From: Escherichia phage vB_EcoM_PTE-Eco09
DNA length: 64,000 nt
Sequence record: PQ306574.1
Direction: 5' to 3' (one strand)
Shown here: positions 3,843 to 45,680 of the stretch, one piece after another
Layout: each line of letters starts with the position of its first letter
Position numbering within the stretch: position 1 is the stretch's first letter
Notes under the pieces: generated by a model
Seen by the model: the letters and a program-made list of their open reading frames with translations, nothing else
The model's database searches: none
Told to the model about the DNA's origin: nothing
Position numbers and translations under genes: made by a program

Positions 3843-4205
3843 ATGATTGAAATTAATTTGATTAGTCCTGAAAACTTCCTTAAAATTAAGGAAACTTTAA
3901 CCCGCTGCGGCATTGCCAACAATCGAGACAAGACGCTGTATCAGTCTTGTCATATTCTCCAGAAGAAAGGGCGCTATTACATCGTTCATTTCAAGGAGTT
4001 GTTGAAATTAGATGGTCGTAGTGTTAAAATGACGTGGGAAGATGAATTACGCCGTAATAACATTGCAAAACTTCTTGCGCAGTGGAATCTGTGTACCCTG
4101 ATTGATAGTGATTTTGAAACTACCGAAGTTAATAATTTCCGTGTACTGTCTTTCAAACAGAAAGAAGAGTGGACGCTGATCGAGAAATATCAGATCGGGC
4201 GATAA
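3843..4205 (+). CDS. regA: translational repressor RegA
   Basis: 120 aa; MIEINL...KETLTRCGIANNRDKTLYQSCHILQKKG closely matches T4 RegA. Confidence 0.9.
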   Translation: MIEINLISPENFLKIKETLTRCGIANNRDKTLYQSCHILQKKGRYYIVHFKELLKLDGRSVKMTWEDELRRNNIAKLLAQWNLCTLIDSDFETTEVNNFRVLSFKQKEEWTLIEKYQIGR

Positions 4206-4226
4206 GATACTGATGGGATAGGGGTA

Positions 4227-4255
4227 TTGACAAACTAAGTCGATTCCCCTATAAT
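4227..4255 (+). promoter_or_regulatory. sigma70-like early promoter upstream of gene 43
   Basis: TTGACA-17 nt-TATAAT; inverted repeat ATAGGGG...CCCCTAT spans the -35/-10 region. Confidence 0.5.
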
Positions 4256-4287
4256 GAGTGTCTTTCGTAAGTGAAGGAGTTTATATT

Positions 4288-5489
4288 ATGTATTTTCTGT
4301 CATGTGAGCGAGTGGGTGATAAGATCTACGAGCGTTATATTGATGATGCTGGACAAGAACAAGAGCGTTACGTTGAATATACGCCAACTTTATTTCATCA
4401 TGCCGCGCCTGGTATGGTTACGAATTATAAAGATATCTATGGCAAGCCTTGCATTGCTAAAAAATTCCCATCTATGAACGAGGCCAACAAATGGCGTAAA
4501 AAGATGGGAGAAATGGGGCAGGAGGCACTAGGGATGGATGATTTTATCATCTCCTATCTGTCTGATACGTATAAAGGCGAGATTCGATATGACCGAAATA
4601 AAATCCGTGTAGCATGGGTTGATATCGAGGTCACTGCCCCAGAATTTCCTAAACCAGAAGAAGCGAAATATCCTATCGATGCAATTACGCATTATGATTC
4701 CGTACATGATCGTTTCTTTGTATTTGACTTGAAAGGAAAAAACGGTGAAATCTGGGAAGCAAGCAAGTCTATTCTTCGACCTGATATTGTAGAGCGCGTT
4801 GTTTATAACGTCTATGACACAGAAGATGAATTGCTGTTAGAATACATCCGATTCTTTGAGGAAAACCGACCCGTTGGTTTCACTGGCTGGAACACAGAAA
4901 CATTCGATATTCCATATATCATTAAACGTATCAGTAATAAGTTCGGAAGTAGAACCGCTAACCGTCTAAGCCCGTGCGGTAAGATTAAATCCAGAATCTC
5001 ACAGGATGATTTTGGCAACGAGCGTGAAGCATTTACGATCATGGGGATCGAAAGCCTTGATTATATTGACCTGTACAAGAAATTTAGCTTTACGACTCAA
5101 CCAACATATGCGTTAGATTATGTTGCTGAATATGAGACAGGAATCGGTAAGGTTGATTATGATGGTCCGTTAAAGAAATTGCGTGATGACAACCATCAAC
5201 TTTACATCGATTATAACATCGGCGACGTTGATCGTGTGCTGGCGATTGATAAAAAGCGTGGATTTATCGATCTTGTGTATAGTCTATGTTTCTATGCAAA
5301 GATTAAATTTAACCATGTTTATAACCCGATGAAAGTATGGGATGCTATTATCTTCGGATCTCTGAAAGCTGAGGGTAAAGTAGTACCGGAAAATAAGATA
5401 CAGCCTAAGCAGACTTATCCTGGCGCATTTGTAAAAGAACCTGTGCCGAATGCTTACCGCTGGATGATGAGTTTTGACCTTACTTCCCT
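4288..5489 (+). CDS. 43: DNA polymerase gp43, exon 1 (N-terminal/exonuclease half, ends within the SLYPS motif)
   Basis: MYFLSCERVGDKIYERYID matches the T4 gp43 N-terminus; FDIEV exo motif. The frame hits a stop 7 nt after the proposed 5' splice site. Confidence 0.9.
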
Positions 5490-6602
5490 AAACTGATATG
5501 GGGCTTTCACTGGTGACAGTGATCGAATAACCTGCTTAATTGCTGGGAAATCTCTAAGGAGACAATCAGCAGCAGTTGCATTTTGAGCTAACGTGTCTTA
5601 TAATGTATATAAATATTGATATACATTGGAGGCGCGAGATGAAAGACATTTTAAGAAAGTACGAAATACATAACGAGGAAGCATTAAACGACTACATTAA
5701 ACTGGTGTCTAATCCGTATCAGGGTGAAGAATATTCCGAGGTGCATCATATATGCCCGAAGTCAATGTTCCCTGAATATCTGTTAGATAAATGGAATCTT
5801 GTTAGGCTTAAGTTTGAAGACCACGTAGAGGCGCATCGGTTATTGTGATTAATATTCAATAACGGTGAATGCAAGAGAGCATATGCTTTCATCTCTAGAG
5901 GATCTTATGACGATAAAGTGAAGGCGTTAACCAAAGATGCATTCGCTGGAGACAATAACCCAGCCAAGCGAGAGGAAGTTAGACTGAAAATATCCGAAAA
6001 CAAGACCGGAAAAGCCAGAACCGATATGAGCGGAAAGAAGTATTTCGGGGCTGATGAGGACATTATACGAAAAGGTCTTGATTCTATGGCAGAAAAGCTA
6101 AAGAATACTGTTATCGTTAAGGATAAGGAAGGAAATCGGTTTAGAGTTAGTTGTGATGATCCTAGATATGTTTCCGGTGAGTTAGTATCATTTAATGCTG
6201 GAGAGAAGCGCGAAAATTCAGCGTCTAAACGACCGGAAGTTATGAGTAAAATAATGTCAAAACGTAATGAAACTTATGCTAAATTTGCAAGTTTCACATT
6301 TGATGAAATGGTGAATTTTCTTGTTGAAGCACATAATTCAGGAAAAGAGATCTTTGGTAAGAAGAAACCTTTTGCCAAGAATTATAGCGGATACTGTAAG
6401 AGAACCCCGTTTGATCAAAATGAGCTTAAAGATGCAGTTGTTCAACGACTATCGAAAGGGTAACGAACCGAGTAGAGTAGAATCAAGCGATTCGAAATGG
6501 CAGGATTCTCTATGAGAATGTGATATAGTCTGATCTACATGGTGACATGTAGCAGTTCGCAAGAGAACGGGCGCGGGAGTAGCGAACCGCGCTGAACATA
6601 TG
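5490..6602 (+). mobile_element. putative group I self-splicing intron in gene 43
   Basis: U at 5489 can pair with G5500 (P1: CCCU/GGGG); terminal G at 6602; P10 pairing GAUAU (5495-5499) with exon 2 GUAUC (6603-6607). Core-like elements AAUUGCUGGGAAA, AAUCAGCAG and GAUAUAGUC; GNRA hairpins. Joining the exons restores TSL-YPSIIRQVNISPETI. Confidence 0.65.
5639..6463 (+). pseudogene. intron-encoded HNH homing endonuclease with NUMOD3-like C-terminal region, interrupted by an in-frame TGA (5846-5848)
   Basis: HNH-like motif EVHHICPKS...NLVRL...HVEAH in the first 69 codons; the same frame continues after the TGA into NUMOD3-like NPAKREEVRLKISENKTGK. RBS GGAGG before ATG 5639. Confidence 0.6.
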
Positions 6603-26306: not shown

Positions 26307-27653
26307 ATGAATAAATCAGTTACTTACCGCAGCCTTGAAAGCATTGTACATAATGAAGCTAAGGAATATGCGATCTATTCTGCCGAGGAACGCGGGATTC
26401 CTCAATTAGTGGATGGGCTTAAACCAGTGCAACGCTTTGTTATGGAATGTGCTTTGCAAAAGAGTAAAGGCGACCGTAAGAAATTCCGTAAGATGGCAGA
26501 TATTGGATCTGGTGTCGCTGAGTTGGGGTATCACCACGGCGAAACTAATGCCGTAGAAGCCGGATCACTCATGGCGAATACATGGAGCAATAATACTCCA
26601 CTGCTTGACGGTCAAGGTAACTTCGGATCGCGTTTAGTCCAGAAAGCAGGAGCGGCACGTTATATCTTTGCTCGTGTGCATGAAAACTTCTTTAAAATCT
26701 ATAAAGATATGAATTGCGCACCTAAGCACGAAGATCTGGAACACATCCCGCCAGCGTTCTACTTGCCAGTTGTGCCAATGGTATTGGCTAATGGTATTAG
26801 TGGTATTGCTTCAGGGTATAAAACTGACATTTTACCGCATTCACTGGAAAGCCTTATTGAATGCACAGAGCTAGCACTTGCCGGAAAACTGGATAAAGAA
26901 CCTAATGTTCAATTCCCGAAATTCACGGGTAAAGTTATCCCGCGAGATGATCGCGATGGTGTGATTCTTGAGGGTACATATGAACTAAACGGCAAGACTA
27001 AACTGACAATATCAGAAGTTCCTTATAAGTTCGACCGTGAAGAATATGTAGCGGTACTGGATGCACTGGAAGAAAAAGATCTGATTGTATCGTATAATGA
27101 CCGTTGCTCTAAGGACGGATTCAGATTTGAAGTAACACTGAAACGCGATTATTTCAAAAGCGAAGATGAATCCGCTCGACATGAGCAAATCATGAAGGAT
27201 TTTAAACTAACACAGTTAGTAGCCCAGAATATCGTAGTGGTTAATGAACGTGGTTTAGTAGAAGTATTCGAGAAAGCGAGCGATCTGATCCGTCGATTCG
27301 TCGAAATCCGATTAGGGTATGTCGATAAACGCATTGAATTGATGCAAGCGGAAACGCTGGAAGCATACAATTATGCAATGGCTAAAGCCGAATTTATCGA
27401 CCGCGTAATTAAGGGCGAAATCGAGCTACAGGGCAAGAAAAAGGCCGAGGTAATGCAATCCATCAATGGACATGAAAAACTGCGTCCATACGCCGATAAG
27501 CTAGTTTCTATGCCATTGTATAGCGTTACTCAAGAAGAGTATGATCGACTGGTCAAAGATGCCGATAAACATCATAGTGAATATGAGTATTGGACAAAGA
27601 CGACCGCAATGAAGGAATATAAGAAAGATCTTAAAGAACTTAAGAAGGGTTGA
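26307..27653 (+). CDS. 52: topoisomerase II medium subunit gp52 (GyrA-like)
   Basis: GLKPVQRF, ANTWSNNTPLLDGQGNFGSR, ARYIFARV; ATG 26307 with RBS. The track ORF begins at an upstream GTG. Confidence 0.9.
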   Translation: MNKSVTYRSLESIVHNEAKEYAIYSAEERGIPQLVDGLKPVQRFVMECALQKSKGDRKKFRKMADIGSGVAELGYHHGETNAVEAGSLMANTWSNNTPLLDGQGNFGSRLVQKAGAARYIFARVHENFFKIYKDMNCAPKHEDLEHIPPAFYLPVVPMVLANGISGIASGYKTDILPHSLESLIECTELALAGKLDKEPNVQFPKFTGKVIPRDDRDGVILEGTYELNGKTKLTISEVPYKFDREEYVAVLDALEEKDLIVSYNDRCSKDGFRFEVTLKRDYFKSEDESARHEQIMKDFKLTQLVAQNIVVVNERGLVEVFEKASDLIRRFVEIRLGYVDKRIELMQAETLEAYNYAMAKAEFIDRVIKGEIELQGKKKAEVMQSINGHEKLRPYADKLVSMPLYSVTQEEYDRLVKDADKHHSEYEYWTKTTAMKEYKKDLKELKKG

Positions 27654-39571: not shown

Positions 39572-42500
39572 TTAGTCTTCCCAGATAAAGTCTACGGTAC
39601 GAGTCAGATTATTGGCGATGATTTTAACATTACCAACCTTGATCCAGTCACGAACCGTCATAGAGTTCATTAAACCACCTTCTGCAACAACTGCCCCGAT
39701 TTCCTGAGCGGTAGGCTTATTCTGTTTGGTGTAAATTTCACCCCATGCGGTCCATTGACCACCAGTACCGGAACGGATATAATGTTTATGAGTACCATCA
39801 GGGGACCAAAGCTGGGTAAGCCCGTCCGCGTCAGTACCCCATTGCATCAGAGTACCGTTTTTCTTCTCTGGATAAGTTTCTTTGATGTTCTGGGTAGTAA
39901 CTCGCATATTCCAGAAACCGATGTTACCGATTGCCGGAGCGGTTGCCGCGCTAGCTTCATGCTTAACAGAAACAATAGGCGCATTATCCATAGTCAGCTT
40001 GCCGACCATTGTATCGCCAGCATTCTTAACAAACCGACGGTTAAGAACTTCGTCGGCGTTTCCTGCGTGTACGATCTGATATTTCTGTCCGGCGATCTCT
40101 GTAGTTAACGTTTGAGAACCTGCCTTGATGTTAACACTTCCACCGTGACCGATATTCAGCGTACCATCTGGGGAACGAGTCATTGCCGGATTAGACTGGT
40201 CAACAATGTATAAACCGCCTTGTTTCGCATACAGGTTACGACCTGCAATAAAGTCTCTATATGCTGTCGCGTCGCCATTGTGTTTCATAGCAAAGGCGTA
40301 ATGCTCAACGACTCCACCATCATTGATTTTACCGAAAGAGATAGCATCACTATCAACAACTTGCGCTGTTCCAGTACCACCAACGATAATAGACCAAGAG
40401 TTTTTCATTCCTTCCGATGCGGTTGTGCCATGCAGAGTAATTCCGGTGTGACCGTCAACTCCACGATCACCCAACACCAGATGACCATTACTCGGAACAT
40501 CGGTCGAGTTCTTAGTCACAGACAGAGTTTCAAAGGAACCTGATTTTAAGCACTCTAAATCGCCCTTCACGTTAACGTTTTTATTAAACGTGTAATTGCT
40601 CTCTATGGTCTGATCAATGTCTCTACGCGCCCATTTAGAGGCCTCTACGTTACCCAATTTCAAACTATTCTGAGCGGTTGCCATCTTAGGTAAGAAATTA
40701 GCAAGTGCGTAGTTTAATCCTTTAGGGGTAACAGCAATTCCGTCATGCTGGTAGTTTCCTAGTTCTTGAGTAGAACCTTGCAGATTATCACCAACAAAAC
40801 AGTTTTCCTGAGTAGCAACTTTCAAGAATCCACGACGCGCTTCGGTTGCTTTCCATGTATCCTCTGTCTGAACAACATATTTGAAGTTCTTCGGAGAAAT
40901 TGCTACATTGTCCATAATACCAGCCACGGTTTCGGCGTGAGTACCAACTCGGATAATACCTTCTTTACCTTCGGTGGCCTTTTTGCCTTGCAGCTTTTTA
41001 GGCGTGATGATTGTAGTATCATCTTGACCAGCGTCAGTAAGCTGAGTAGTCGCAACTTTAGCGACACCTTTTGTATCTTCGGTTGCATCCAGACCGCTGA
41101 TCATGATACCTTGCCACAAATCACCAGTAAGGTTAAGCCCCTGAGTCGGATCTACTTTCAAACGCTGTGCATTCTCAAAGAAGGTTTTAATCTTCAATGG
41201 GGTAGAAATGCGATCATCGTCACGACCTGCGTCAAATTCCGGCTGAGTTGCAATTTCTGCTAAACCGTGTAAAGTTTCCGTTGCGCGGCGAGTATGCAAC
41301 TTTTTAGGCGTGATGATATGGTTATCACTTTGACCTAAGTTTGTTTCTTCCTGAGTTGCAATTTCAGCGATACCAGTGCGCGATTCGGTAGCAGTACGTT
41401 TCGTTAGCGTGCGAGTCGTGATTAGTAAAGCATCTTGCGGGGTTGATTCTGTAGCCCCTTGCACTTCCGCGTCAGTTGCCAGATAGCCAACACCACGGGA
41501 AGTTTCGGTCGCCTTGACTTCGTTGATGTTTTGTGGCGTAACAATTTTAGCATGGTCGTTGATGTTATAGATCCCTGTACCAGCTTCGCCACGTCGAGCG
41601 GCAGCACTACCGCCAACCTGAACAATTTCAGCAATACCAGCGAGATCTTCGGAAGCGCGACGTTCTTCTAATTTCTTAGGAGTTATTGCGCGAGTATCGT
41701 CTAAACCTTCATTGGTTTCGTGCTGGGTTGCAATTTCCATCACACCACGACGGGCTTCGGTAGCAACACAGTCATTTAACTTTTTGGGTGTAACGATAAC
41801 ATCATCCAGGAAGTTGGAACCAGTATCTTGATGCGTTTCCGCTTGAGTCGCAATGCGAGCAATACCGCGTCGAGTTTCGTTGGCTGTTTTATTAGACAGC
41901 ATTTTTGGTGTTACAGCAACTTCGTCGCTAGGATTCTCTTCATGGTTTTTATTCGTTTCAGTCTGGGTAGCCAGTGCAATTACACCAACACGATCTTTAC
42001 GAGTCGGATCTACTCGTTCTACAATCGGGTGAGCATGTGCCACCAACCAGTATTTCTTACCATCATCACCTTCTGAATAAGAGAACTCCAGATAAGGTAC
42101 ATAATCATTTGCAGCGTTGAAAGACAATTCAGACACTCCAGTCCATGTATCGGTCCCATTGAATGGGTACTCGCTACGCTTAGGAAACTGAACCATGTTT
42201 TTCTGCATAAGGATTTTTGTATCCTCTTCTGAGGTAATGATTCGGCAAGTCTGGTTTCCGTGCATATACTGCATAGAAACTTGAATACGATCACCCGGCT
42301 CGACATTGGTCGGCAGCGTCAGAGTAACATCACGACCACCAAATACAGCAACATAGCTATTAGGTTGCAAGCGAGTGTCATTGATGATCGGTTTAAGACG
42401 AACAGACTGATCACCATCCCACAAACGCCATAAGTTTTCCGTCTTGTCAAAGATGAATACACCATGACCGCTACGCTTACCGATAATCTCTTTTAGACCG

Positions 42501-43312
42501 GACGTGCCAATTGATTGTTCTTCTGCGTGCTCATGAACTTTAACCGTAACGTGGTTGGTTGCGGTTAATCCGTCAAGGTCTGTAGTCTGGATCATGTCGC
42601 CATTGTTGGCAAACTTAGGAAGCACTAAGGTAATATTACCCAACGAACTACGACGAAATACCTGATCACCATTCTGCATTTGAATAGCATCAATCGCTGG
42701 CTGTGCGTACACACCGCGTGGCTCTGTTCCTGTCTGATAAACATGCCAACGATTACGAACAAAGATGAAATAGTTCATTGCATACGGGGTAGTGCAATAC
42801 CATTTTCGGTTGTACACATTACCGTTATGGTAAAACTCATGTCCTGTACTCAAAAACGATAATTCGTTAACACCACACTTGCCACCGATATCTTTTACTG
42901 TTATAGTGTCTCCCTCTGCTGGTTTAGTTGGCATAGAGAAAGTCAAGTTTGCAAATTGACCATCTGCTGCGATATAATCACCAGACTGTAAAGGAGTATC
43001 ACCGGAAGTTGCTGCAATATAATCCCAACGTGGGTCCGTGCGCAGTGCTTGCCATTTAGTCGGGTCAAAATCACCTGCTGGCTTTGTGATATCTTCTTTT
43101 GCATAATACGGACGGTTTTGATAGATTGTAGTTCCGTATTGATCATAACCGCGAGTTGTGTCATACTGAGTAATGCCATTATGGTAATTGAAAAATTCAA
43201 CGTTGACCGCATCCGTTGATGTGTTTTTATCTGCGTATGCTACATTGACGACCTTTTCATTACCAGCGTCAAAGCCAAATGTGGCCTTGAAATGTTGAGA
43301 AAAATCTGCCAT
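39572..43312 (-). CDS. 34: long tail fibre proximal subunit gp34
   Basis: 1246 aa; repeated ATE(T/A)RRG(V/I)AEIATQ units; C-terminus GNVKIIANNLTRTVDFIWED matches the T4 gp34 C-terminus. Confidence 0.9.
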   Translation of the reverse strand: MADFSQHFKATFGFDAGNEKVVNVAYADKNTSTDAVNVEFFNYHNGITQYDTTRGYDQYGTTIYQNRPYYAKEDITKPAGDFDPTKWQALRTDPRWDYIAATSGDTPLQSGDYIAADGQFANLTFSMPTKPAEGDTITVKDIGGKCGVNELSFLSTGHEFYHNGNVYNRKWYCTTPYAMNYFIFVRNRWHVYQTGTEPRGVYAQPAIDAIQMQNGDQVFRRSSLGNITLVLPKFANNGDMIQTTDLDGLTATNHVTVKVHEHAEEQSIGTSGLKEIIGKRSGHGVFIFDKTENLWRLWDGDQSVRLKPIINDTRLQPNSYVAVFGGRDVTLTLPTNVEPGDRIQVSMQYMHGNQTCRIITSEEDTKILMQKNMVQFPKRSEYPFNGTDTWTGVSELSFNAANDYVPYLEFSYSEGDDGKKYWLVAHAHPIVERVDPTRKDRVGVIALATQTETNKNHEENPSDEVAVTPKMLSNKTANETRRGIARIATQAETHQDTGSNFLDDVIVTPKKLNDCVATEARRGVMEIATQHETNEGLDDTRAITPKKLEERRASEDLAGIAEIVQVGGSAAARRGEAGTGIYNINDHAKIVTPQNINEVKATETSRGVGYLATDAEVQGATESTPQDALLITTRTLTKRTATESRTGIAEIATQEETNLGQSDNHIITPKKLHTRRATETLHGLAEIATQPEFDAGRDDDRISTPLKIKTFFENAQRLKVDPTQGLNLTGDLWQGIMISGLDATEDTKGVAKVATTQLTDAGQDDTTIITPKKLQGKKATEGKEGIIRVGTHAETVAGIMDNVAISPKNFKYVVQTEDTWKATEARRGFLKVATQENCFVGDNLQGSTQELGNYQHDGIAVTPKGLNYALANFLPKMATAQNSLKLGNVEASKWARRDIDQTIESNYTFNKNVNVKGDLECLKSGSFETLSVTKNSTDVPSNGHLVLGDRGVDGHTGITLHGTTASEGMKNSWSIIVGGTGTAQVVDSDAISFGKINDGGVVEHYAFAMKHNGDATAYRDFIAGRNLYAKQGGLYIVDQSNPAMTRSPDGTLNIGHGGSVNIKAGSQTLTTEIAGQKYQIVHAGNADEVLNRRFVKNAGDTMVGKLTMDNAPIVSVKHEASAATAPAIGNIGFWNMRVTTQNIKETYPEKKNGTLMQWGTDADGLTQLWSPDGTHKHYIRSGTGGQWTAWGEIYTKQNKPTAQEIGAVVAEGGLMNSMTVRDWIKVGNVKIIANNLTRTVDFIWED

Positions 43313-43346
43313 TATTGGGTCTCCTGTTATAATATGAAATTATTTA

Positions 43347-43928
43347 TTGTGTGAGGTGTTTGTTGTGGCAAAAACAAAATTTTGGGATATCGAGACACAG
43401 AAAGCGATAAAAGGTAGATTCTATCATGTCGATGGAATATTATACCATTTAAAGGATTCTGTAGCTGCTGGATTCCGAAAAGAAGGGTCCATATACAAAA
43501 AAGGTGATGTGGTAAGGGTATGTCTCCATAAAGAAGGATATTTATACTTTACATTTTACAACAATGGTCATAAACTTAATCTGTTTGTACATAGAGTTGT
43601 CTGGTTTTTAGAGTATGGTACTCAGGTTGAACGAATAGATCACATAGACCAAGACAAAACTAACAATAGACCGTCAAACATGAGAGAAGCAACCGAACAG
43701 CAAAATCAGTTTAACGTCTCAAAGAAAAAGGCTTGCCATAGCAAATATAAAGGTGTATCATTATCACCAAGCAAGAAAAAGCCGTGGAAGGCGTATATTG
43801 TTATCAATCGAAAGAATATACATCTAGGATACTTTGAGACAGAAGTTGAGGCGGCTAAGGCTTATGACCGTGCAGCACATGAAATAGTTGGCGAGTATGC
43901 TTATTTAAATTTTCCAAAAAGAGGATGA
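43347..43928 (+). CDS. free-standing HNH homing endonuclease with C-terminal AP2-type DNA-binding domain
   Basis: HNH_3-like HRVVWFLEYG...ERIDHIDQDKTNNRPSNM; AP2-like YKGVSLSPSKKKPWKAYIVINRKNIHLGYFETEVEAAKAYDRAA. No in-frame ATG; start is TTG 43347 or GTG 43356/43365. Confidence 0.7.
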   Translation: MCEVFVVAKTKFWDIETQKAIKGRFYHVDGILYHLKDSVAAGFRKEGSIYKKGDVVRVCLHKEGYLYFTFYNNGHKLNLFVHRVVWFLEYGTQVERIDHIDQDKTNNRPSNMREATEQQNQFNVSKKKACHSKYKGVSLSPSKKKPWKAYIVINRKNIHLGYFETEVEAAKAYDRAAHEIVGEYAYLNFPKRG

Positions 43929-43934
43929 TATATT

Positions 43935-44120
43935 ATGGTTAAAGTTGATTTGTCAGAAGGTGCAAAATGGGTAGTTGACAGAATCCCTGATAAGGATTAC
44001 AATTATTTCCGCGCCGAATTAAACAATGCAATTCTGCGAGTTATGGAGAAGTACGGGTATGACCGTGAAGTATCTAACTCGTTTGGCGAATATGTTGTTG
44101 TGAGAGTGGAGAGAACTTAA
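43935..44120 (+). CDS. hypothetical small protein
   Basis: 61-aa ORF. Confidence 0.4.
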   Translation: MVKVDLSEGAKWVVDRIPDKDYNYFRAELNNAILRVMEKYGYDREVSNSFGEYVVVRVERT

Positions 44121-44122
44121 TT

Positions 44123-45070
44123 ATGACGTATAACCCATTTACAAAAACGACCGCTACACTTAATGATTTCTTCGATGATCCAGAAGATAAACTGCCGGAA
44201 GGTGTGCATTTGATTGATATGTCGCAGCTTATGATTGCTACTATCTCACATACCTTTAAACCGGAAGATCCTATTAATGAAGGTATGATCCGTCATCTTA
44301 TCCTTGACACCATGCGTTATAATATGACAAAATTCAAAGAGCAATACCCAATTACGGTACTTGCCTTTGATTCAAGCAAAGGTTACTGGCGACGTGATAT
44401 CGCCCCTTACTATAAACGCAACCGTAAGGAAAAACGAGACGCAGATCCGCGTGATTGGGAGATGATCTTTGCTGCGATCAATAAGATCACCGAAGAGTTT
44501 AAAGAGAACATGCCTTATCACGTTATTAAGGTTGACAAAGTTGAAGCGGATGATATAATCGCTGTATTAACTAAAAAGTTTTCTGTAGAAGGTCGCCAGG
44601 TGCTAATCAACTCCGGCGATGGTGACTACACACAGTTGCACAAATACAAAAATGTGAAACAGTGGGCACCAGTACAGAAAGCGTGGAAGAAATGCAAATA
44701 TGGTAGCCCTTACAAAGACCTTATGGTAAAATGTGTTAAGGGTGACGCAAAAGACGGTGTAGCTTCTATCAAGTGCCGTAGTGATTTCATTATCTCACGA
44801 CTGGAAGGAGAACGAGCTAAACCAATTGCAACCAAATGGTTAGAGCAAATTTTCGATGCCGAAGATCCAAAGTCTTTGATGACAGAGGAAGAAGCACGAC
44901 GCTTTGACGAAAACCGCGAACTTATTGATTTTGAATTTATTCCTGATAACATCGAATATGAAATTTTGTTAGCATGGGAAAAATCTAAACCAGCACCACG
45001 CGGTAAAATTTATAACTATTTTGTAACAAATGCGTTAGTTAAAATGTTGCAGAAAATTGGTGAGTTCTAA
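44123..45070 (+). CDS. rnh: RNase H / 5'-3' exonuclease (FEN-1 family)
   Basis: 315 aa; GYWRRD, ADDIIAVL, SGDGDYTQLHKY, RGKIYNYF match remembered T4 RNase H. Confidence 0.9.
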   Translation: MTYNPFTKTTATLNDFFDDPEDKLPEGVHLIDMSQLMIATISHTFKPEDPINEGMIRHLILDTMRYNMTKFKEQYPITVLAFDSSKGYWRRDIAPYYKRNRKEKRDADPRDWEMIFAAINKITEEFKENMPYHVIKVDKVEADDIIAVLTKKFSVEGRQVLINSGDGDYTQLHKYKNVKQWAPVQKAWKKCKYGSPYKDLMVKCVKGDAKDGVASIKCRSDFIISRLEGERAKPIATKWLEQIFDAEDPKSLMTEEEARRFDENRELIDFEFIPDNIEYEILLAWEKSKPAPRGKIYNYFVTNALVKMLQKIGEF

Positions 45071-45080
45071 GGGTTGACAC

Positions 45081-45680
45081 ATGAAAGAACTTGAATTAAA
45101 ATACTATGCACACTCACAAATTGGCGTCGAAACCATCTGTGATTTGTGGGTGGCAATGTATGACGGGTACAATCTCTTAGACCGAGATAACATATTAAAA
45201 CACGAATTTTATTATGATACCGAAGATCATGCGCTACGTCAAAAAGGAATTTATGCACGACTTGACTGTAGAAAATCAGAGATCATGGTCAAAATGGGTG
45301 ATAATGAATCTGGACTATTCAACCGCGAGGAAATGACATTTTCAAATTGGGATGAGTTCGTCCATTTTATTGATAGTCTAGGGGTAAACTCCGACTATAT
45401 CACTGCAATAATGCAAGTAATGACATATCGCAAGTCATTGACTCTAGATATGGGTTGTGGTATAGTGGAAATGTGCAAAGACACTTTCTATTATGGCAAA
45501 GTAGGCGAAGGATTGGGAAACACTGCTCATTATGAACTTGAGTTCGAGTTAAAATCAGGTGATGAAAAAGCACTTGACATTATCCGAGAAATGATGCTAG
45601 AATATGTTGGTGACGATTTAAGTCCTAGCGAAATTTCAAAAGCTGAACGTGGTTTTCAATTAATGACGAAAGAGGGTTAA
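45081..45680 (+). CDS. CYTH-like (triphosphate tunnel metalloenzyme) domain protein
   Basis: N-terminal ExExK (MKELELKYY) and C-terminal ExExExK (HYELEFELK) signatures; 199 aa. Confidence 0.5.
   Translation: MKELELKYYAHSQIGVETICDLWVAMYDGYNLLDRDNILKHEFYYDTEDHALRQKGIYARLDCRKSEIMVKMGDNESGLFNREEMTFSNWDEFVHFIDSLGVNSDYITAIMQVMTYRKSLTLDMGCGIVEMCKDTFYYGKVGEGLGNTAHYELEFELKSGDEKALDIIREMMLEYVGDDLSPSEISKAERGFQLMTKEG

Follow-up and report, generated by a model that had tools for sequence, protein, structure and literature searches.

A probable free-standing HNH-AP2 homing endonuclease gene between tail-fibre gene 34 and rnh in a minority of RB49-like coliphages

The DNA analysed here, a stretch of 64,000 nucleotides that we call the window, comes from an RB49-like, T4-type coliphage of the genus Krischvirus. 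At positions 43365-43928 lies what is very probably a homing endonuclease gene, free-standing and of the HNH-AP2 type, which a minority of RB49-like (Krischvirus) coliphages carry. An earlier note on this DNA had proposed such a gene, and the domains of its product, its intergenic site and its patchy presence in 8 of 58 related records all point to a free-standing homing endonuclease; its nuclease activity, target site, expression timing and homing are inferred. Elements of the HNH-AP2 type in RB49-type phages were described in 2004-2010, and what is new here is a fixed start codon, evidence for recent spread of the gene and a candidate target or immunity site.

Results

The gene occupies a divergent spacer between gene 34 and the orf61-rnh unit

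On the plus strand the reading frame is open between 43338 and its TGA stop (43926-43928), as seen in the ORF list and in the sequence, and the coding sequence lies within it (Table 1). The earlier note had let the feature begin at 43321, where we find no boundary. It had also placed the gene at the junction of gene 34 and rnh, which agrees with the layout found, namely gene 34 on the minus strand and orf61 followed by rnh on the plus strand. The ATG of gene 34 is at 43310-43312 and the gene is divergent from the endonuclease gene, after which the plus-strand order is orf61, rnh, an ORF with a CYTH domain, dsbA and gene 33, with rnh as the downstream gene in the same transcription unit as orf61. 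The site is a divergent spacer that separates gene 34, a late gene, from the early orf61-rnh-CYTH-dsbA-33 unit. The Shine-Dalgarno (SD) sequence of orf61, GAGGA (43921-43925), lies within the last endonuclease codons, directly 5′ of the stop codon. The CYTH-domain ORF (45081-45680, plus strand, 199 aa, conserved, 3′ of rnh; Pfam 8e-7, PHROG 14893) is labelled differently between GenBank records, as 'adenylate cyclase' or as 'hypothetical'.

The endonuclease gene is free-standing and intergenic, between the conserved genes 34 and orf61/rnh, and these neighbouring genes are intact in phages both with and without it. An Rfam search of 42500-45200 matched no family, group I introns included, and gave only a chance-level match (E 0.26). 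Because the gene is intergenic, its neighbours are intact and no intron model matches, it is not intron-encoded in the manner of I-HmuI or I-TevIII. A tblastn search found no second copy of the HNH-AP2 protein in the window.

Table 1. Features at and around the putative endonuclease gene (positions in the window)
Feature	Position	Strand	Details
Gene 34, long tail fibre proximal subunit	39572-43312	-	ORF; GenBank annotation of homologous loci
Divergent patch, gene 34 codons 26-33	43214-43236	-	12 differences in 23 bp; two haplotypes
Sigma-70-type promoter-like site	43306-43333	+	-35 CTGCCA, 16-nt spacer, extended -10 TGTTATAAT
Block differing from phages without the gene	43337-43916		Seen by aligning carriers with non-carriers
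Proximal gene 34 late-promoter position	43341-43348	-	AATAAATA here, TATAAATA without the gene; alignment
Shine-Dalgarno-like GAGGTG	43353-43358	+	6 nt before GTG 43365 (5 nt in allele B)
Putative HNH-AP2 homing endonuclease CDS	43365-43928	+	187 aa, GTG start, TGA stop 43926-43928
T4-type late promoter motif, perfect TATAAATA	43539-43546	-	Antisense in endonuclease ORF, towards gene 34
HNH_3 nuclease core	43584-43709	+	aa 74-115 of 187; Pfam, alignments, I-HmuI-like fold; D92, H93, N101, N105, N114, N117
AP2 DNA-binding domain	43740-43892	+	aa 126-176; Pfam, PDB matches, Foldseek
61-aa conserved ORF (orf61)	43935-44120	+	PHROG 3594, unknown function
rnh (T4-type RNase H / 5′-3′ exonuclease)	44123-45070	+	Pfam RNaseH_C 2.6e-37, 5_3_exonuc_N 6.1e-18

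The protein joins an HNH nuclease domain of the I-HmuI type to an AP2 domain

The architecture read from the ORF in the earlier note, an HNH_3-like motif combined with an AP2-type DNA-binding domain, was confirmed by the profile search that the note had named as a check, by relatives in the PDB and by a confident structural model. Both domains score above their Pfam cut-offs, HNH_3 at 47.3 bits against 24.8 (E 1.6e-12) and AP2 at 34.0 bits against 33.3 (E 3.6e-8), the latter by a margin of only 0.7 bits. The best PHROG is PHROG 99, 'HNH endonuclease' (2.5e-46, residues 15-189), and an NCBIfam search of the protein returned no family. By sequence search of the PDB, residues 43-159 match I-HmuI (1U3E, 3.9e-4) and the C-terminal third matches the plant proteins WRI1 (3.4e-8), ERF096 (6.9e-7) and AtERF1 (2e-5), and also TEM1. 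The AlphaFold2 model, for which 97 homologues were used, is of high confidence (pLDDT 92.7, pTM 0.85), and its best Foldseek matches in the PDB are again I-HmuI (1U3E; E 7.7e-4, prob 1.00) and AP2 domains, those of TEM1, AtERF1 and ERF96 superposing with an rmsd of 1.2-2.6 Å (about 60 residues, 39-43% identity). These structural and PDB matches support the predicted AP2 domain where its Pfam score is marginal. The plant AP2/ERF proteins in question (AtERF1 1GCC, TEM1 7ET4, WRI1 7WQ5), on which the last 60 residues of the protein superpose at 1.2-1.7 Å, are transcription factors that lack a nuclease, whereas in the window the AP2 domain forms part of a phage protein together with an HNH nuclease.

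Seven residues, D92, H93, N101, N105, R107, N114 and N117 (numbering of the 187-aa form), are invariant among 20 aligned homologues. In the 97-sequence alignment H93, N105 and R107 are invariant, and D92, N101, N114 and N117 are at least 90% conserved. Therefore, the catalytic DH...N...N motif is intact.

The gene is present in a minority of related phages

We compared positions 42800-44600 of the window with 58 phage records of 90-99.6% identity, all from Escherichia, Shigella or Krischvirus phages. This comparison of the 34/rnh junction in related phages, proposed at the outset as a check, revealed the block in 8 of the 58, which are otherwise 97-99% identical, as expected for a homing endonuclease gene; the carriers are KFS-EC (twice, as GenBank and RefSeq records), ELT4, PHB13, G37-3, FL20, pEJ01 and FL15, and the other 50 records have a 74-bp spacer instead. 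The block swaps out about 36-48 bp of this spacer for a net gain of 548 bp, the locus measuring 4801 with the gene versus 4253 without. At the right junction homology resumes at 43915-43917, AAAAGAGGATGA. The left junction is not clean, with gene-linked changes at 43326 (T to G), 43332 (G to A) and 43337-43340, then partial similarity at 43341-43347 and, beyond it, full heterology.

Annotation of the gene varies between the carriers. ELT4, PHB13 and FL15 use the label 'homing endonuclease', FL20 has an 83-aa fragment called 'putative homing endonuclease RB16 2', G37-3 and pEJ01 list a 'hypothetical protein', and KFS-EC leaves the gene unannotated. A second allele, allele B, is known in an intact form of 187 aa (27 member sequences on 6 contigs; P0001) and is also found at the 34/orf61 junction, on metagenomic contig L023. 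An exact-pattern scan of viral_contigs for the 5′ end of the endonuclease gene gave no match, and a metagenome scan gave one error-prone 1250-bp contig. Our literature search found no paper on the insertion at 34/orf61-rnh in particular. On contig L023 another HNH_3 ORF lies directly after gene 59 (locus 6514-6564).

Identical copies on diverged backbones suggest recent spread

The gene of the window shows 0/552 mismatches to those of KFS-EC, G37-3, pEJ01 and FL15, and yet the flanking 1.5 kb of these phages differ from those of the window by 1.9-3.2%, a figure that rises to 5-7% further to the right. At the rates of the flanks 10-18 differences would be expected in the gene, and the Poisson P for zero is 3e-5 to 2e-8. 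The flanks of the window are nearly identical to those of two phages without the gene, AV108 (1/712, 5/784 and 6/1400) and kvi (on its right side, 4/784 and 2/1400). Presence of the gene is therefore incongruent with the backbone, as the window is nearest to the non-carriers AV108 and kvi. The segment common to the carriers is short, ending within about 70-150 bp to the left (SNPs 43280 and 43175) and within about 30-70 bp to the right (43944, 43958 and 44000).

The endonuclease gene thus appears to have spread recently between related phages; by its sequence it is far younger than the DNA around it, and the backbones that carry it are unrelated, a pattern like that of an actively spreading element. 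The short common flanks also argue for a cut close to the insertion point. Flanks as short as these could also be obtained by ordinary recombination rather than homing, and ordinary recombination is frequent in T4-like phages.

The comparison of copies also bears on whether the gene is a decaying relic, that is, the inactive remnant of a past invasion, kept only by linkage and now being lost, and we consider this improbable. It would account for the frameshifts in two of the eight GenBank copies, PHB13 and FL20, both of allele B, where independent +1 insertions (a run of seven A lengthened to eight, and an extra A after GGGTA at 43519) disrupt the coding region at the equivalents of 43490-43520; because of these insertions PHB13 and FL20 annotate only a truncated ORF. 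The frameshifts are either early decay (pseudogenisation) or homopolymer sequencing errors, and their position in or beside A runs fits the latter as well. Decay would likewise be in keeping with the weak start codon and with the SD mutated in KFS-EC, two features that suggest low expression, and with the missing annotation in KFS-EC. The ratio pN/pS between the two intact alleles, about 0.38 (6 non-synonymous and 4 synonymous changes), could be cited on the same side given how few the changes are, and with only 10 substitutions it is a weak sign of constraint. Against decay, the intact gene with all its catalytic residues is preserved in six of the eight GenBank copies and in the metagenomic allele B. 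Moreover, complete identity of the gene across backbones that differ near it indicates recent transfer, not long passive residence.

The block appears to alter both neighbouring promoters

A consensus scan of the spacer revealed a promoter-like site at 43306-43333 with 10/12 consensus matches and the TG of an extended -10. In phages without the gene the -10 reads TTTTATAGT, and the SNPs at 43326 and 43332 create the TG and a consensus TATAAT, giving TGTTATAAT. The endonuclease gene would then be the first cistron of an rnh transcript from this promoter. This reading of the site may be wrong, because use of early promoters is not known for the free-standing endonuclease genes of T4 (PMC2988022). 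On the minus strand, the cassette changes the proximal late-promoter position of gene 34 (Table 1) and holds, antisense in the endonuclease ORF, a perfect late promoter motif without variation among the 8 copies. Five occurrences of TATAAATA are found in the 64-kb window and 5.4 are expected; given this lack of enrichment, we treat the embedded late promoter as no more than a lead. Judged from these motifs, the cassette appears to alter both neighbouring promoters.

In T4, seg and mob genes are known to contain promoters of neighbouring genes, which are believed to help stabilise the seg and mob genes (PMC2988022). One might therefore suppose that the protein or the cassette is kept for a benefit to the phage rather than by selfish homing, through marker exclusion by cutting the DNA of competing phages in the same cell, through an AP2 regulator acting on the 34/rnh promoters or through the promoters it provides to its neighbours. 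The changes around the gene would suit such a role, as the cassette creates the extended -10 TGTTATAAT, turns the proximal late promoter into AATAAATA and holds the antisense TATAAATA, and embedded promoters favour retention of the T4 genes. We nevertheless regard a phage-benefit role as very unlikely: 50 of the 58 relatives do without the gene, conservation of the catalytic HNH residues makes a pure regulator unlikely, and the embedded TATAAATA could have arisen by chance at the frequency given above. A selfish homing endonuclease remains our preferred reading of the gene.

A divergent patch in gene 34 accompanies the gene

About 90 bp inside gene 34 a short patch of codons differs sharply between two haplotypes (Table 1), with identical sequence on either side. 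In the sense of gene 34, hap2 reads GCATTGGCTGATAAGAATGTCAACACC and hap1, the haplotype of the window, GCATACGCAGATAAAAACACATCAACG; synonymous as well as non-synonymous changes occur, and the peptides are YADKNTST in hap1 versus LADKNVNT in hap2. All eight GenBank carriers have hap1, as do the metagenomic contigs L023 and L025, and the 50 records without the gene divide into 14 with hap1 and 36 with hap2. The endonuclease gene and hap2 were never seen together. The association of gene and hap1 has a Fisher P of 1.7e-4 (5.8e-4 without duplicate records), which is only indicative, as the genomes are not independent. Within 1.5 kb on either side, AV108 equals the window minus the gene only, and kvi equals the window minus the gene, the patch and the variant at 43175. 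A terminator-like hairpin with a T-run at 43208-43233 (plus strand), antisense within gene 34, overlaps the patch; no role is evident for it, and hap2 differs at several of its stem or T-run positions (43214, 43217-43223, 43226 and 43232).

The patch may be a candidate cleavage or immunity site, or a hitch-hiking marker; indeed, simple linkage over 100 bp fits the pattern equally well as a model in which hap2 is cleaved and hap1 is immune. A more far-reaching reading, which we put forward tentatively and hold to be doubtful, joins the patch to the promoter changes: the patch, not the spacer, would be the target, with hap2 cleavable and hap1 immune, and the cassette would rewire the promoters of both neighbours. 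On this reading the hap1 phages that lack the gene (AV108 and JSE, for example) would bear the marks of cleavage followed by repair, with a conversion tract that ended before it reached the gene. The rnh unit would gain an extended -10 promoter from the cassette, and the late promoter of gene 34 would have moved to the antisense TATAAATA in the endonuclease ORF. If this were true, the embedded late promoter would make the cassette hard to delete.

Translation can be fixed at GTG 43365

The in-frame start candidates are TTG 43347, GTG 43356, GTG 43365, GTG 43509 and ATG 43680. The earlier note had stated that no in-frame ATG exists, which is not quite correct in that ATG 43680 (codon 106) is in frame; however, this codon lies past the catalytic His93, and an active enzyme could not be made from there. 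Its proposal of a non-ATG start is borne out, and can be narrowed to GTG 43365 by allele B and by the N-termini of paralogues. The note had placed TTG 43347, GTG 43356 and GTG 43365 alike downstream of a GAGGTG ribosome-binding site; this holds for GTG 43365, the only one of the three downstream of the motif, but not for TTG 43347, which is upstream of it, nor for GTG 43356, which is part of it. The motif is conserved in seven of the eight GenBank copies. The exception is KFS-EC, in which an A to T change at the equivalent of 43354 turns it into GTGGTG; the gene of this phage is otherwise identical to that of the window.

Allele B lacks one T at 43359, between GTG 43356 and GTG 43365, and when read from TTG 43347 or GTG 43356 it runs into a stop after 17 codons, whereas the frame of GTG 43365 is intact. 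As a TGA stands three codons upstream, GTG 43365 is the first possible start in allele B. Homologues of 48-54% identity, including RB49p040 (MSRRSKLWDEETQ...), start within one or two residues of MAKTKFWDIETQ, and the N-termini of RB49p040 and of the paralogues P0002-P0006 have the form M..K.WD, aligned with MAKTKFWD. In addition, the GenBank annotations of ELT4, G37-3, pEJ01 and FL15 start at the codon of GTG 43365. T4 mobA is likewise predicted to start at GUG (PMC2988022), and a GUG start is not unusual for such genes. The predicted 5′ leader (43340-43430) folds no better than shuffled sequences (z -1.46), which lends no support to an occlusion of the SD or the start codon by RNA structure. 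Translation from TTG 43347 (193 aa) or GTG 43356 (190 aa), both in frame with the ORF in the allele of the window, deserves scarcely any credence, as in allele B both fall out of frame while the 187-aa ORF stays intact, neither has an upstream SD, PHB13 has TTA in place of the TTG, and homologue N-termini fit the 187-aa form.

Discussion

The HNH-AP2 class was, according to PMC1524935 and PMC10448857, defined by Magnani et al. 2004, and for RB49 and RB43 the recognition of such elements dates from 2004-2006 (PMC1524935, citing Magnani et al. 2004). Counts for T4-related genomes are one in RB49, two in JSE, three in RB43 and six in RB16 (PMC2993671 Table 5). Petrov et al. treat mob-like HNH and HNH-AP2 genes as separate categories, and the same table has no AP2-containing endonuclease gene for T4 (PMC2993671 Table 5). 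A tblastn search with the protein found relatives in 2041 phage records. The class is thus common and already known, and the gene of the window is one more member of it; our literature search found no experimentally characterised HNH-AP2 endonuclease.

The closest point of reference is RB49p040 (RB49ORF040c) at 26380-26934 of NC_005066, with 49% identity to the window protein over the whole length. The HNH-AP2 genes of T4-related phages share the domain order of the window gene, an N-terminal HNH_3 and a C-terminal AP2 domain, and its approximate size (184-191 aa), and they are likewise intergenic, co-directional with the downstream genes and patchy in distribution. They differ in insertion site, which is 34/orf61-rnh for the window gene, a-gt.4/47 for RB49p040 and rnh/CYTH for P0004, and also in the start codon, GTG in the window versus ATG in RB49p040. 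In comparison with genes of the RB49p040 type, the window gene is located at a divergent promoter region, where it appears to alter both promoters. A further paralogue, P0005, lies between genes 46 and 45.2 in Enterobacter phage ENC19. The paralogue P0004 (51% identity, 191 aa) was found at the rnh/CYTH site on the Krischvirus-like metagenomic contigs L017-L019 (locus 4001-4576), in which the 34/orf61 spacer is empty. Because P0004 occupies this second site in the same operon, the rnh neighbourhood hosts two different HNH-AP2 genes in the population.

Among characterised enzymes the best structural match to the nuclease half is the nicking enzyme I-HmuI of Bacillus phage SPO1 (1U3E), with which the protein has the DH...N...N motif in common. 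The protein is probably monomeric, like I-HmuI, so a nick is plausible. The two also differ, for I-HmuI is encoded in a group I intron and binds DNA by a helix-turn-helix and minor-groove helices, whereas the protein of the window has no intron and an AP2 domain. The mobA-mobE genes of T4 are also free-standing and intergenic, encode an HNH domain with a C-terminal DNA-binding region and in some cases contain embedded promoters of neighbours (PMC2988022), but the literature places mob-like genes in another category than HNH-AP2 genes (PMC2993671 Table 5). I-HmuI, MobA and MobE are all monomeric HNH enzymes that nick (PMC2988022), and nicking by the window protein is suggested by analogy with these three.

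We propose that the gene would be transcribed as the first cistron behind the extended -10 promoter and translated from GTG 43365, 6 nt after GAGGTG. The protein is predicted to be a monomeric, I-HmuI-like beta-beta-alpha-metal nuclease with D92, H93, N105 and N114/N117 intact, the AP2 domain of which would confer sequence-specific DNA binding at a long asymmetric site. In a mixed infection the enzyme would nick or cut a genome without the gene, at or near the 34/orf61 junction, and recombinational repair from the carrier genome would copy the gene together with short flanks into the recipient (intronless homing).

The practical value of these results is mostly for annotation, as the start at GTG 43365 and the family of the gene are now fixed. 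They also provide an unusually clean natural series for characterising an HNH-AP2 enzyme, with two alleles, a candidate target and three near-isogenic backbones, namely kvi (hap2, without the gene), AV108 (hap1, without the gene) and the window (hap1, with the gene). Krischviruses are in use in phage-therapy cocktails, and mixed infection in such cocktails would let elements of this kind drive recombination near tail-fibre genes.
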